Positions 14,426 to 45,367 of a stretch of DNA of 64,000 nt are shown here, piece by piece. Both the position numbers and the translations under genes were made by a program. This DNA comes from Armatimonadota bacterium. GTDB lineage: Bacteria > Armatimonadota > UBA5829 > DTLH01. The notes under the pieces are model-generated. The model searched no databases, was not told where the DNA came from, and was given only the letters and a program-made list of their open reading frames with translations. Location: positions 1 to 64,000 of the forward strand of contig JBBRAE010000004.1 of the NCBI GenBank assembly GCA_038207085.1. The letters run 5' to 3'. The number at the start of each line of letters is the position of its first letter. Within the stretch, counting starts at the first letter, position 1.

Positions 14426-14747
14426 AAGTGCAAAATGCAAATTGACGGGATGGGTGGAGGGCGATTGGCCGTACCTCTTGTCGGGAGATAGGTTTCCATC
14501 TTGTTCGATCGTTCGGGAGATTGCTCCCGAATGCAAAGAAGAACGAGGACTTAAGTCCGGGGCAAGGGCTACAGCCGACTGAGCGGGAGCTAAGCTCCCT
14601 TGCTGTTCTTTGCGTGCGCGATACACATCGCACACGATCTGGATCACAGATCCCTCTCTTGCCAACAGGCCTCGGATTGCAAATCCGGGCCAACGTACGC
14701 CCACCAATCTCCCAAATCTCGCCAGTCCCAATTTTGCACTTTGCATT
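14426..14747. repeat. Modular hairpin mosaic repeat, locus 1 (modules A+B+C)
   Basis: Shares A and C with 38989-39266 and the 134-bp B with 45074-45207; imperfect inverted heptad ends. Confidence 0.85.
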
Positions 14748-14833
14748 GCTCCTCCCCAACCTTCGTCCCGTTCACGAAACGATATTTCTGGGCAAAATGT
14801 ACTGTAGACATATCCATAAAGGAGGACCGTTCC

Positions 14834-38985: not shown

Positions 38986-38988
38986 GAC

Positions 38989-39266
38989 AATGCAAATTGC
39001 AAATTGAAAAATGCAAATTGACGGGATAGGTGGAGGGCGATAGGCAGTACTCCAGTTCTTCCGGATCTGTACCAACTGTTCGTCCGGATCTGTGATCCGG
39101 GACGTCTGGGCCGGATAGGCATCTGTGATGCTGGTAGATTGGGCACAGTCGAAAGAACGGGATCACAGATCCCTTGTTTGCCCTTGGGCCCCGGATTGCA
39201 AATCTGGGCCAACGTACGCCCACCAATCTCCCAAATCTCGCCAGTCCCAATTTTGCACTTTGCATT
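38989..39266. repeat. Modular hairpin mosaic repeat, locus 2 (modules A+D+C)
   Basis: A at 39008-39041 and C at 39160-39266 match locus 1; D at 39060-39089 is identical to 45250-45279. Confidence 0.85.
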
Positions 39267-39321
39267 TCCCTCCCGTGTGTGTCATAATAGTTAAAATTGT
39301 ACATTACTATGAAAACTGAAG

Positions 39322-42300
39322 GTGAAGCTATTGGTTGCTAATCGCAGCCGGTATGAGGTTACGGAAGACTGGAGCGCCAGCTGGATCTGGTGCGAGGGCG
39401 AAAGCCATCCCAGAAACTTCCATATTTACGCGCGAAAGGCCTTTAAGCTGGCGAGCAAGCCGGTGTCGGCCCGTATCAGGATCACCGCGGACAGCCGTTA
39501 CAGGTTGTATGTCAACGGGAACTACGTTGGCTGGGGGGCAGCAAACTCCATCACCCGCAGACTGACCTATGATACCTACGATATCACCCCGTTTCTAAAC
39601 AGGGGTAATAACGCCATCGCCGTTATCGCGTATCACCTCGGACACCCGGCATCTAATTACATACCTCGCCGAGCAGCGCTTATCTGCGAAGCTGACATTG
39701 AGCTAAAGAGCGGCGCCGAGAAGATCGTCACCGACGAATCTTGGCGCGTCATACCGGCAGCCGCGTGGACCGATCACGGCAGCCGCGTGGCCCGAAACCT
39801 CGGCTATCAGCAGGTTTACGACGCCGCACTCGACGCCGACGGTTGGAACGAGGCCAAGTTCAACGACTCCAAGTGGCTGGCGCCGCATGTGCTCGGCCAG
39901 CCTCCTATGTCACCGTTCGGCAGGCTTATGCCGCGCGATATCCCACGTGTAGTCGAGCAGAACATACTGCCCGTTGAGATCGTCGGGATGTACGACGCCC
40001 CTCCGATGCCTGCTGAGCTGCTTCCCCCGGACGTGCCGAGGTTTATCTCGCAGTCCGAGCTAAAGCCCATTGAAGCGGGACGGGTAGACAAAAGCGAGCG
40101 CATTCTTGCTGAAGGCGACGACGCGACGATGGTTCGCGTGCCCACTGAGGGTGGCGTCTCGATTATCCTCGACTTTGGCCGACAGGTCTACGGTTCGCTT
40201 GAGATCGCGCTCTCAAAATGCACCAGCGGCATCCTCGACATCGCCTATGATGAGACGATCGACCCCAAAAACGGCATTCGCCCCGACCGAGGCGGCATCC
40301 GCTACACCGACCGCATCATCATCAAGAAGGGCAAACAGGTCTGGAGCAGTTTTGAGCCCAGAGCCTTCCGATACGTGCAGCTCGATTTTAGGGAGTGCGC
40401 GAAGCCTTTTGCTCTGAACCACGTTTTTGTGAGGGATTCGGCGTTCCCGATCGCCCTTATCGGCGCTTTTGAGTCAAGCGATCAGACTCTGAACTATGTA
40501 TGGCAGAACGGGGTCGACTCGGTGCGTCGGGTGCTTATGGAGAGCTATCTCGACTCGCCCTGGCGCGACCGCACGCCGAGCTTTGCAGACGCAGTCGCCG
40601 CGATCAGGCCCGCGTACTCCGCATTTGGCGAGGCCCCTCTTGTAGAGGAACGCCTGCGCCACATAGCCGCCTCCCAGCGCAGAGACGGAGCGCTCCTTGC
40701 GCTTCACCCCAGCGCCGAAAACCGCGTTTTTGTCGATCTTGCGATGCTTTTTGTAATCGCAGTGTGGGACAATTACGTCTGTGGCGGCGACAAGGAGCTC
40801 TTGGCCGACCTGTACCCGACGATTGACCGCTGGCACGGCTGGATCAGCCGGTTCGTCGACGACGACGGCTTGCTTTTTGACGTGCGCGCCGACCTGCTCC
40901 TTGACTGGGGAGGCGTGAACCGCCACGCGGAGATGGCCGGTCTTAGCTGCATGTATCTTGGAGCCCTCGTTGCTATGAAGCAGATGGCAGAGGTGCTTCG
41001 TCGCGACGCCGACGCCGTCGAGTATGACCGCATCGCCGTCTCGCTTCGTGCGGCTATCGACAAGAACTTCTGGAGCGAAAAGCGCGGGCTCTACTCCGAC
41101 ACCCGGATGTATGGCAAGCTCGACGAGCATTTCTCGCGCCAGACCAACATCCTTGCGGCGCGTTTTGACGTGCCGAACCACTATCAGAAGTCGTCAATCC
41201 TCAGGCAGGTGCTCGATGAGCGCGGCCTGCCACAGGTGAACTCACCGATCTTTACCGCGATGCTTGTCGAGACGATGTGCCGCGCGGGTTACGTCGAAGA
41301 GGTCCTCGGATTTATCCGTCAGACCTGGGGGCGTAACGCCGGCGTCTCATCGTCTATTCTTCCGCCGGTCCATCAGCTGCAGGCGTACCTGCTTGGGGCC
41401 GTTCCGACGGGGAACCCGGCAAGGCTTCGCTTTGAGCCCCATATCGCAGACCTCAGGTGGGCCGAAGGGGTCATTCCGACTCCCTCAGGCCCGGTGCGCG
41501 TCCGCTGGAAAGCGGGTATCCGCGGGTTCGCAATGGACGTCGAACTCCCGAACGGTGTGACCGCTGAGATCGTCCCTCCGAGGCATGAGCTTGGGTCGCG
41601 GATAACGGTGGACGGCGCGCAGACCGGCGGCTCGGTGATCGAGCTTGGTCCGGGATTCCACAGCGTGTTGATCTCCAGATCGAGGACGCCAGGCCGCATC
41701 CCCCAGGTGCCTATTGAGGTCGAGATCGTTGAGCTGGTCGAGACGATCCATATCCCGCCAAACCGCGGCGACATCGAGACTGTCGAGCAGATGATCCAGA
41801 TCCTTACCCAGATGGAAAAGGAACATGTCTACGTCATCCCCTCAGATGACGAGGACGAGGGCGTGATAATCCCCGAGGCTCGCCTTGATGAGCCGGAGAG
41901 GAAGTCGCGCAGACGCGGCAGACGCGGTCGTGACAGGCGCGAAGAGCCAGTTCGTGAAACTGAGACCGCCGAAGTCGCTCCGGCGATTGAGACTGAGTTT
42001 ACAGAAGAAATAGAGCCATCTCTGGAGACTGCCACAACCTCCGAAGAGCAGGGCCGCGAGAATCGTCCCAGGCGAAGACGCCGCAGAGGAAGAGGTCGTA
42101 GCGGTTCTCAGCCCTTCGACGGCTCTCAGGATGGCGAGGTCACCGAATCGACCGAAACCACAGAGGCTGTCGAACCTGTCGAGCAGGCCGCAGAGGCCAC
42201 GCAGGAGACTTCCGAACCGGTGGAAGAGTCTTCAGACGAGCGCTCAGACAGCAGGCGTCCAAGACGCCGTCGCCGCAGAAGCCGCAGTGGTCAGGATCAG

Positions 42301-42915
42301 CCCGTTTCTGAATCTCCGACAGATGAAACCGTCGTCGAAGAGCCAGTCGAGGCCGAACGAGTTGCCTCAGAGGAGCCCGAAGCCTCGTCCGATCAGCCTT
42401 CGAGGCGTCCGAGGCGCAGAAGAAGGCGCTCCGGCAGAGGTGGTCAGAACTCCCAGACAGCCGAGACCGTTCAGGCCGAAGCTGCTCCGGAGCCGGTGGA
42501 AGTCGCTCCCGCTCCCGAGCCCGAGCAGACCGAACAGTCCGAGCACCGTTCGAGGTCAAGGTCCCGCTCAAGACGCAGGCGTTCGCCAAGGCCTGTTGAA
42601 GAGCAGCCCGAAGCCGTCGCGCCGGTCGTTGAACCTGCTCCCTCGGAAGCACCGGCAAGGCCCGCGAGACAGCGCACCCGTCGCGCTCCCAAGCCTGCAG
42701 AGGCCACCGAGCAGCCAGCAGCCGAACCGGTCGCAAGCCAGCCGTCAGAGAGCGACAAGGCTCCAAGGCGAAGAACCCGCAGAACTGCGAAACCCGCAGA
42801 GCCTGTCGTGGAACCGTCGTCTGAGCCTGCAGCGTCAGAATCGGCTCCAAAGCCAAGACGACGCAGACCAGCGCGCAAGCCCGCGACCTCCGAAGAAACT
42901 CCTTCGGAGGGCTAA
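39322..42915 (+). CDS. GH78 alpha-L-rhamnosidase-like protein (degenerate active site) fused to a long Arg/Glu-block disordered tail
   Basis: ASWIW, ITADSRYRLYVNG, LDFGRQ, FRYVQL, FW...GLY.D, WAEG.IPTP.G; C-terminal ~410 aa of low complexity. Confidence 0.85.
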   Translation: MKLLVANRSRYEVTEDWSASWIWCEGESHPRNFHIYARKAFKLASKPVSARIRITADSRYRLYVNGNYVGWGAANSITRRLTYDTYDITPFLNRGNNAIAVIAYHLGHPASNYIPRRAALICEADIELKSGAEKIVTDESWRVIPAAAWTDHGSRVARNLGYQQVYDAALDADGWNEAKFNDSKWLAPHVLGQPPMSPFGRLMPRDIPRVVEQNILPVEIVGMYDAPPMPAELLPPDVPRFISQSELKPIEAGRVDKSERILAEGDDATMVRVPTEGGVSIILDFGRQVYGSLEIALSKCTSGILDIAYDETIDPKNGIRPDRGGIRYTDRIIIKKGKQVWSSFEPRAFRYVQLDFRECAKPFALNHVFVRDSAFPIALIGAFESSDQTLNYVWQNGVDSVRRVLMESYLDSPWRDRTPSFADAVAAIRPAYSAFGEAPLVEERLRHIAASQRRDGALLALHPSAENRVFVDLAMLFVIAVWDNYVCGGDKELLADLYPTIDRWHGWISRFVDDDGLLFDVRADLLLDWGGVNRHAEMAGLSCMYLGALVAMKQMAEVLRRDADAVEYDRIAVSLRAAIDKNFWSEKRGLYSDTRMYGKLDEHFSRQTNILAARFDVPNHYQKSSILRQVLDERGLPQVNSPIFTAMLVETMCRAGYVEEVLGFIRQTWGRNAGVSSSILPPVHQLQAYLLGAVPTGNPARLRFEPHIADLRWAEGVIPTPSGPVRVRWKAGIRGFAMDVELPNGVTAEIVPPRHELGSRITVDGAQTGGSVIELGPGFHSVLISRSRTPGRIPQVPIEVEIVELVETIHIPPNRGDIETVEQMIQILTQMEKEHVYVIPSDDEDEGVIIPEARLDEPERKSRRRGRRGRDRREEPVRETETAEVAPAIETEFTEEIEPSLETATTSEEQGRENRPRRRRRRGRGRSGSQPFDGSQDGEVTESTETTEAVEPVEQAAEATQETSEPVEESSDERSDSRRPRRRRRRSRSGQDQPVSESPTDETVVEEPVEAERVASEEPEASSDQPSRRPRRRRRRSGRGGQNSQTAETVQAEAAPEPVEVAPAPEPEQTEQSEHRSRSRSRSRRRRSPRPVEEQPEAVAPVVEPAPSEAPARPARQRTRRAPKPAEATEQPAAEPVASQPSESDKAPRRRTRRTAKPAEPVVEPSSEPAASESAPKPRRRRPARKPATSEETPSEG

Positions 42916-42920
42916 CAGAT

Positions 42921-42957
42921 AAAAAAAGGCCGCCCAACTGAATGGGCGGCCTTTTTT
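42921..42957. terminator. Bidirectional intrinsic terminator
   Basis: AAAAAAAGGCCGCCCA-actgaa-TGGGCGGCCTTTTTT between convergent genes. Confidence 0.9.
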
Positions 42958-45073: not shown

Positions 45074-45300
45074 CGATCGTTCGGGAGATTGCTCCCGAAT
45101 GCAAAGAAGAACGAGGACTTAAGTCCGGGGCAAGGGCTACAGCCGACTGAGCGGGAGCTAAGCTCCCTCGCTGTTCTTTGCGTGCGCGATACACATCGCA
45201 CACGATCGGGAGTCGTGAGATAGGTGAAACCGCCATCCCGAGTGCGAAGTCCGGATCTGTACCAACTGTTCGTCCGGATTTGCAATCCGGGCCAACGTAC
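45074..45300. repeat. Modular hairpin mosaic repeat, locus 3 (modules B+D+partial C)
   Basis: 45074-45207 matches 14506-14639 at 133/134 nt; 45250-45279 equals 39060-39089. Confidence 0.85.
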
Positions 45301-45367
45301 AACCACCAACCCCCCAACCCCCAACCCTCGCTAGTCCCCTCTGGACTCTGAACTATTTCGCCTGCCC

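Follow-up and report, generated by a model that had tools for sequence, protein, structure and literature searches.

We describe a glycoside hydrolase family 78 (GH78)-like protein with a long charge-block tail, encoded in a 64,000-nt stretch of an Armatimonadota bacterium (contig JBBRAE010000004.1, positions 1 to 64,000; hereafter the window). The gene lies at 39322..42915 on the forward strand, and its product is referred to as the window protein. It is composed of two parts: a confidently folded GH78 body (residues 1-786) that lacks the loop carrying the general-base glutamate, and a tail (residues ~838-1197) in which Arg-rich and acidic blocks alternate. Orthologues across the order carry the same type of tail, including orthologues in which every canonical active-site residue is present. 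Judged from these sequences, this is a tailed family with a repeatedly eroding active site rather than a dead enzyme that gained a tail. The original prediction, made from the window alone, had proposed a pseudo-glycosidase repurposed as a sugar-sensing or scaffolding module linked to an RNA-binding, condensate-forming tail; the loss of activity, however, does not precede the tail. We hold the gene, the body lacking its base loop, the blocky tail and the greater age of the tail with high confidence. The function that we propose, a GH78-body hub with a self-associating tail that binds RNA or other polyanions, is put forward more tentatively.

The GH78 body and its deleted loop

All four GH78 domains were matched by Pfam in the window protein, three of them above cut-off (Table 1). 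The Bac_rhamnosid6H match (aa 381-595) covers profile positions 4-225 of 339 only. The closest solved relative by sequence is RhaB of Bacillus sp. GL1 (PDB 2okx; E 8e-59), with residue 16 of the window protein paired with RhaB residue 5 at the start of the alignment. An AlphaFold2 (AF2) model of residues 1-790, built from a 62-sequence alignment, has a mean predicted local distance difference test score (pLDDT) of 91.2 and a predicted template modeling score (pTM) of 0.89. The top 11 Foldseek matches of this model are all rhamnosidases, the first being 2okx_A (E 3e-53, TMq 0.83). By homology and predicted fold, the body is a GH78, as had been proposed for the first ~785 aa. No export signal is visible on inspection of the N-terminus, which agrees with the earlier view that a signal peptide is absent.

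Seven positions were taken as canonical: RhaB D567, E572, W576, D579 and E841, together with the His and Trp of the CHGW motif, which have a role in the sugar pocket. In a HMMER alignment, RhaB D567, E572, W576 and D579 stand opposite D411, D416, S420 and D423 of the window protein. The alignment breaks at query residue 671 (chain residue 830) and resumes at 703 (890), leaving the window protein 28 residues shorter at this point. In a MAFFT alignment with 35 relatives, the 29 columns with GATTxWE...CHGWS are gaps in the window protein, and the loop-lacking segment begins with RQTWGR at 41317. The remnant loop has low model confidence (pLDDT 60 in one model and < 50 for residues 674-677 in another). 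The base Glu is conserved at ≥ 90% in the 62-sequence alignment, in which the window protein is gapped. Over the seven positions, the window protein reads D, D (for E), S (for W), D, gap, gap, gap, and is thus non-canonical at five of them.

The deletion is found in more than one source. Protein P0003, with an 82% identical body and from a separate source, has the same deletion, and over 41234-41479, which bridges the deletion site, a second-sample contig shows 0 differences to the window. An independently built contig over 40900-42915 also shows 0 differences; this contig may derive from the source sample. In the genus of the window protein, the loop that carries the general-base Glu of GH78 and two residues of the sugar pocket was lost through an in-frame deletion. 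This confirms the absence of the base segment GATT.WE...S.CH.W that had been noticed in the window. A search for orthologues combining the deletion with the tail had also been suggested as a check, and P0003 has both.

The degenerate acid motif had been used as a second argument for loss of activity, and this argument is only partly valid because both flanking Asp residues are retained and Ram2, an active GH78, has Asp at the RhaB-572 position (PMC3663046, in the part consulted). The Trp is indeed lost and the Glu is replaced by Asp; the Glu-to-Asp change alone is not disabling. The same part of that source gives the proposal of Cui et al. that Glu572 of RhaB is key, acting with Asp567 or Glu841, gives the Trp576 and Asp579 equivalents as conserved, and terms the identity of the GH78 catalysts unresolved as of 2013 (PMC3663046). 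No papers on GH78 pseudoenzymes were found in the open-access literature and bioRxiv.

The charge-block tail and its family

Residues 837-1197 have a pLDDT < 50 and no secondary structure, by which disorder is predicted. The tail (aa 835-1197) contains 71 basic residues, of which 65 are Arg, and 77 acidic residues, while aromatics and large aliphatics are nearly absent. It is near-neutral overall, and its net charge per 10 aa ranges from +8 to -5. Charge segregation amounts to 0.161 vs 0.060 ± 0.010 in 500 shuffles, none of which reaches the observed value (z = 10.4); on the same measure the GH78 body scores z = -1.1. A rule of 5 R/K residues in 8 identifies seven basic blocks, and the weaker RPARQRTRRAPK makes eight. 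The alternation of Arg-rich and acidic blocks described in the original prediction is thereby supported; the count of eight depends on the threshold. The spacers between the basic blocks are rich in Glu, Pro, Thr and Ala and measure 19-55 residues with a net charge of -4 to -15, and several Arg-rich blocks stand in an RG/RGG-like context. The terminal block reads KKPRRRYxRRR or KKKRRTYTRRPRKK in relatives. No other open reading frame (ORF) of the 3.35-Mb genome has five basic/acidic alternations, and the runners-up have one, in spurious frames.

The tail is preceded by a low-confidence linker between the last β-sandwich, which ends at residue 786, and the motif IPPNRGDIETVEQMIQILTQMEKEHVYVIP. 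The linker helix (aa 818-837; block pLDDT 68) is the sole predicted helix of the C-terminal third. A complex prediction for two copies of residues 800-850 gave a score of 0.01 and a mark of 0.42, which is not evidence either way. As the amphipathic linker helix recalls encapsulation peptides, cargo of a microcompartment was considered and dropped, since a search of the complete genome for the BMC shell domain PF00936 gave no match. On another contig, at G000:C31:17795-18583, the genome does encode an encapsulin (Linocin_M18), and nothing ties it to the window protein. Tandem duplication was likewise rejected as the origin of the blocks: apart from two 9-nt arrays, the DNA of the tail shows no tandem repeats, and the blocks are therefore old and diverged.

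A database search returned 18 proteins, 967-1216 aa in length, whose identity over the body ranges from 38 to 100%. In a search of 61 related genomes, a best match with E ≤ 1e-100 was present in 5/5 genomes of the same family and 21/28 genomes of the sister family. No match was found in two genomes of a third family of the order, and 25 genomes outside the order gave partial matches only, none better than 2.7e-79. The open frames of the orthologues are mostly 1000-1244 aa long. Maximum-likelihood phylogeny places the tailed proteins in a single clade (SH-aLRT 99). The fusion of body and tail is present in 19/20 genome loci and in 17 further database proteins. Of these 37 rows, a few of which are the same protein twice, 36 contain 3-9 basic blocks with acidic spacers of mostly 30-50 residues and a last block near the C-terminus. 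Tail-less orthologues, which would have spoken against the original prediction, are confined to a single one of these rows. This row, L021 (G035:C3:384564-386606), is a 693-aa frame that stops in the base-loop region and could be truncated or frameshifted.

The linker helix motif IPPNRGDIETVEQMIQILTQMEKEHVYVIP is found in the closer orthologue group and is absent from the deeper group. The closer group also has a short conserved R-S/R-R motif directly before the first domain, and the deeper group (P0016, P0018, P0019) has an extra Arg-rich N-terminal stretch of ~30-40 residues. The named carriers are Armatimonadetes or Armatimonadota metagenome-assembled genomes, with no cultured carrier among the named records. 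A contig search gave mostly distant GH78s, with at least three Armatimonadetes-type rows among the matches listed. Records label these proteins 'family 78 glycoside hydrolase catalytic domain' or 'hypothetical protein'.

Active-site residues vary within this clade. All seven canonical positions are intact in 4/30 tailed rows vs 5/6 tail-less relatives. The base Glu is kept in 27/30 tailed rows and 6/6 outgroup rows; the window protein, P0003 and P0014 are gapped at this column. The tree joins the three with modest support (SH-aLRT 86), and the loss may therefore go back to one deletion event or to two. Within the family of the window protein, the D579 equivalent is replaced throughout, and the pocket His and Trp are replaced in most rows. 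Other tailed lineages have Ser at the 572 position, or Asp preceded by His, Cys or Gly. In this alignment, the window protein marks the far end of an erosion trend that runs through the whole family, and it is the most degenerate member seen. The comparison of orthologues shows the tail to be older than the catalytic loss, because orthologues with every canonical residue carry the tail. The erosion trend suggests that the family is retained for a reason independent of canonical hydrolysis. Elsewhere the genome encodes an L-rhamnose isomerase, RhaA (G000:C11:24825-26066), and two canonical GH78 paralogues (G000:C19:55821-56879 and G000:C10:62679-63683) that match the full six-hairpin profile with 367 and 331 bits, so rhamnoside use by the organism probably does not depend on the tailed protein.

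To assess constraint on the loop-deleted body, the 82% identical bodies of the window protein and P0003 were compared. They differ at 53/148 variable columns (36%) vs 9/128 (7%) of the columns with ≥ 95% conservation among the remaining tailed proteins (chi-square p = 2e-9). By this protein-level proxy, the loop-deleted body is still under purifying selection. The DNA of P0003 was not found in two metagenome scans, the nearest being a 50% relative (L035). The stem branch shared by the window protein and P0003 measures 0.58 changes per column vs tips of 0.13 and 0.09, and no other inner branch in the tailed clade is as long. Such a length would fit rapid change around the loss with constraint restored afterwards, or simply unsampled relatives. 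The two tails are 58% identical, with 79% identity in basic-block columns (80 columns) and 52% in spacers (281 columns), and one entire block-spacer unit was gained or lost between them. On this alignment, the basic blocks and the linker helix are the conserved elements of the tail.

With the tail as query, phmmer found three matches among 1.84 billion representative proteins: the protein itself, the orthologue P0009 and P0081 (E 1.2e-5). P0081, the sole non-family match, is an RNase E that combines S1, RNase_E_G and thioredoxin-like domains. It is matched in its own C-terminal tail, where three basic blocks are in register across acidic spacers, and the charge segregation of that tail (z = 9.0) is close to that of the window tail (z = 10.4). 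Residues 740-1029 of P0081 have basic blocks of the type K-P-K-R-G-R-G-R-P-R-K and acidic, Thr/Ala-rich spacers of ~50 residues; we take these blocks to resemble AT-hook-type motifs. The likeness of the two tails is best read as convergence on a design, not homology. Caulobacter RNase E's C-terminal domain (CTD) is described, in the part of the source consulted, as having blocks of 10-30 residues with a net charge of +2 to +8 and -2 to -8 per 10 residues; it is necessary and sufficient for droplets, and deletion of positive blocks leads to diffuse localization (10.1101/272286). In block size and charge, the predicted window tail fits this description. The assignment of the tail to the RNase E charge-block kind is thereby upheld: it is a blocky polyampholyte.

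Gene layout and surroundings

The gene is real, conserved and monocistronic in layout. It is a single intact frame of 1197 codons, with TTG 39331 as the likelier start, as GAAGG stands ahead of it; the product then has 1194 aa, like database entry P0002. On the 5' side there is a 336-nt spacer with a promoter-like site, and an S8 peptidase gene lies farther upstream. On the 3' side, a hairpin that is likely a bidirectional terminator separates the gene from the convergent genes for the β and α subunits of 2-oxoacid dehydrogenase E1. Rfam gave sub-threshold matches only, all on this hairpin (leader and sRNA families). The source genome is a 100%-complete draft of 83 contigs. The features are listed in Table 1.

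The 5' spacer also contains a copy of a dispersed repeat. A blastn search with 38986-39321 against the whole genome gave 46 high-scoring segment pairs on 21 contigs, with ~30-fold cover of the repeat core. Within the window, partial copies are found at 45250-45317, and the repeat also occurs at 14426-14756. The repeat holds internal CCGGAT...ATCCGG units and looks like a repetitive extragenic palindrome or a miniature inverted-repeat transposable element. The promoter-like site lies at the edge of the repeat copy; a role of the repeat in the function of the gene would be conjecture.

Table 1. Features of the tailed GH78-like gene and its flanks (window positions; aa, residues of the window protein).
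Feature	Position	Strand	Basis or remark
Dispersed intergenic repeat copy, ~160-210 nt	39055..39270	.	blastn vs whole genome
Promoter-like site TTTGCA, 18 nt, CATAAT, with TG	39259..39288	+	Consensus scan, 9/12 matches; pattern match alone
Tailed GH78-like gene	39322..42915	+	1197 aa from GTG 39322; 1194 aa from TTG 39331
Bac_rhamnosid_N β-sandwich, aa 46-192	39457..39897	+	Pfam E 9e-16; aligned with RhaB 5-212
Concanavalin-like GH78 domain (Bac_rhamnosid), aa 280-357	40159..40392	+	Pfam 21.0 bits vs cut-off 22.2; all-β in model
(α/α)6 'catalytic' domain, aa 381-700	40462..41421	+	PF17389 E 1.3e-27; helices 388-691 in AF2 model
Degenerate acid motif DSPWRDRTPSFAD	40552..40590	+	vs RhaB: D567=D, E572=D, W576=S, D579=D
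Remnant NAGVSSSILPP at 29-column deletion site	41335..41367	+	Base-Glu loop and CHGW pocket motif removed
GH78 C-terminal β-sandwich, aa 702-786	41425..41679	+	PF17390 (Bac_rhamnosid_C, aa 702-755) E 7e-9; strands 701-786
Conserved linker motif IPPNRGDIETVEQMIQILTQMEKEHVYVIP	41752..41841	+	27/30 positions same in P0003
Disordered charge-block tail, aa 838-1197	41833..42912	+	pLDDT < 50, charge segregation, kept in orthologues
Basic block 1 RKSRRRGRRGRDRR	41899..41940	+	R/K block scan
Basic block 2 RENRPRRRRRRGRGR	42055..42099	+	R/K block scan
Basic block 3 RRPRRRRRRSRS	42253..42288	+	R/K block scan
Basic block 4 RRPRRRRRRSGRG	42403..42441	+	R/K block scan
Basic block 5 RSRSRSRSRRRRSPR	42547..42591	+	R/K block scan
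Basic block 6, weaker, RPARQRTRRAPK	42658..42693	+	Under 5-of-8 threshold
Basic block 7 KAPRRRTRRTAK	42757..42792	+	R/K block scan
Terminal basic block KPRRRRPARK	42850..42879	+	Near-C-terminal place kept family-wide
GC-rich hairpin, perfect 15 bp, between A6 and T6 runs	42922..42957	.	Separates convergent genes

Possible roles and known systems

We propose that the tailed proteins form an order-wide cytoplasmic family of Armatimonadota in which a GH78-body hub carries an RNA- or polyanion-binding, self-associating tail. The GH78 body would serve as a folded hub, possibly sugar-binding or oligomeric, instead of a hydrolase. The Arg-rich, RGG-like blocks would bind polyanions multivalently, most likely RNA. 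The basic blocks may in addition attract the acidic spacers of other molecules, resulting in salt-sensitive self-association on the model of the RNase E CTD in BR-bodies, and the tailed protein would thus be a scaffold or client of an RNA-protein assembly. Taken as a whole, we rate this proposal as possible, at slightly less than an even chance, and above each of the alternatives below. A bolder version starts from the ribonucleases of the order, a short RNase G-type enzyme without a tail next to RNase Y and RNase J. In this version, the tailed protein organizes a ribonucleoprotein condensate, with the RNase E-style scaffold borne by a former sugar hydrolase and not by a ribonuclease, and its eroded site acts as a rhamnoside or sugar sensor linking carbohydrate status to RNA metabolism; this is improbable in our estimate.

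Several observations weigh against the proposal. The match to P0081 lies in low-complexity sequence and is read as convergence. Across 13 orthologue loci (12-19 kb), no conserved neighborhood points to RNA metabolism; the comparison used greedy ORF picking and may admit spurious GC-rich frames, and shared neighbors are confined to close relatives. The sole RNase E/G homologue of the genome is a separate 574-aa protein without a disordered tail (G000:C20:31848-32657; L001 1129-2853). All 60 relatives with an RNase E/G match show one short frame apiece, apart from five outside the order, in which it measures ~780-820 aa. Across the order these frames are ~565-590 aa, whether or not a tailed GH78 was found; being uniformly short, they show no covariation with the tailed GH78, and a link between its presence and the RNase E/G tail length was therefore rejected. 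With RNase Y and RNase J already encoded in the genome, there is no obvious gap for a scaffold to fill. The test of constraint is a proxy at the protein level, and folding needs alone could explain part of the skew. Lastly, three acidic residues of the acid motif survive, which leaves residual or altered chemistry conceivable.

As an alternative, the tail may be functional with a ligand other than RNA. It could anchor the protein to ribosomes, the nucleoid, polyphosphate, or anionic polymers of the membrane or envelope, or serve as an entropic or solubilizing bristle, in either case without a condensate. Arg-rich blocks bind any polyanion, and the last three blocks stand in an AKP/KPA-type context, which is known from histone-like DNA-binding tails. 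The orthologue loci compared show no RNA-metabolism neighbors, and the genome encodes RNase Y, RNase J and RNase G. On the other hand, the only look-alike outside the family is an RNase E tail, and the regular, near-neutral pattern of blocks and spacers suits the self-associating RNase E design better than a basic DNA-binding tail. We consider this explanation unlikely, though it is the strongest competitor.

The protein could also have kept enzyme activity, as a glycosidase or other carbohydrate-active enzyme whose specificity has changed or whose catalytic base has moved; the tail would then only localize or regulate it. The body is well folded and constrained, D411, D416 and D423 are retained, and the genome has RhaA and two canonical GH78s. 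In the part of the source consulted, Asp is found at position 572 in the active Ram2 and the GH78 catalysts are termed unresolved as of 2013 (PMC3663046). Against this stands the deletion of a nearly invariant base Glu (≥ 90% in 62 sequences) together with the pocket His and Trp, with Ser as the W576 equivalent. The active-site loops have low model confidence, and the 0.58 stem is the longest inner branch. Retained catalysis of this kind is, in our view, distinctly unlikely.

Much weaker still is a decaying, functionless relic that is open by chance in GC-rich sequence. Its active site is lost, and other frames over the tail are also open for ~265 aa, so the openness of the tail alone is weak evidence. 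The 1197-codon frame is intact, however, the 82% relative shares the deletion and the tail layout with differences that avoid conserved columns, and orthologues across the order keep the block pattern, which makes a relic highly improbable. An assembly artefact in the fusion or the loop deletion, a risk that the original prediction had raised and that a draft of 83 contigs does carry, is next to negligible: the gene is not misassembled because the fusion recurs in 19/20 loci of different assemblies and the second-sample contig bridges the deletion, while P0003 shares the deletion and the contigs over 40900-42915 and 41234-41479 show 0 differences.

The proposed hub with a self-associating tail would be of interest for several reasons. 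Bacterial blocky polyampholyte tails that build RNA-processing droplets have so far been studied mainly on RNase E. Here, an order-conserved blocky tail is joined to an unrelated fold, that of a metabolic enzyme, in a phylum that has hardly been studied by experiment. The family offers a natural series from fully canonical sites to a clean loop deletion, with the same tail throughout. This series allows one to ask whether such tails confer RNA binding or condensation independent of the attached domain, and it also bears on how an enzyme becomes a non-catalytic scaffold. It further holds a warning for annotation, as a glycoside hydrolase label is applied despite a full canonical site in 4/30 rows.

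No published account of a tailed GH78-like family was found in the open-access literature and bioRxiv, consistent with the original prediction, which knew of no described example. Within the literature searched, a pseudo-glycosidase joined to an RNase E-type charge-block tail combines known kinds in an unreported way. Three known systems and one short motif serve as comparison. RhaB (2okx) shares the N-terminal β-sandwich, the (α/α)6 domain and the C-terminal sandwich with the window protein at ~20% identity, and neither has an N-terminal export extension; RhaB 213-430 has no counterpart in the window protein. RhaB has the Glu841 loop and the following His/Trp, W576 and Glu572, whereas in the window protein the loop is deleted and the latter two residues are Ser and Asp. 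RhaB has no disordered tail, unlike the window protein. The Arg-rich nonapeptide RRRRRRSSA of cyanobacterial RNase E binds PNPase (PMC3964918, in the part consulted), and blocks 2-4 of the window tail hold a hexa-Arg run followed by Ser/Gly, a few-residue resemblance that is a lead rather than a finding. The RNase E CTD, as in the Caulobacter BR-body scaffold and P0081, is disordered, near-neutral and built of alternating blocks, just as the window tail. The window tail differs in that no RNase E/G catalytic domain is attached, PF10150 having no Pfam match in the window protein, that homology goes undetected beyond one low-complexity match, and that condensates are here a prediction. The GH18 chitinase-like lectins likewise show a glycosidase fold that has lost a catalytic carboxylate and is kept under selection; unlike the window protein, they are secreted eukaryotic proteins without charge-block tails.

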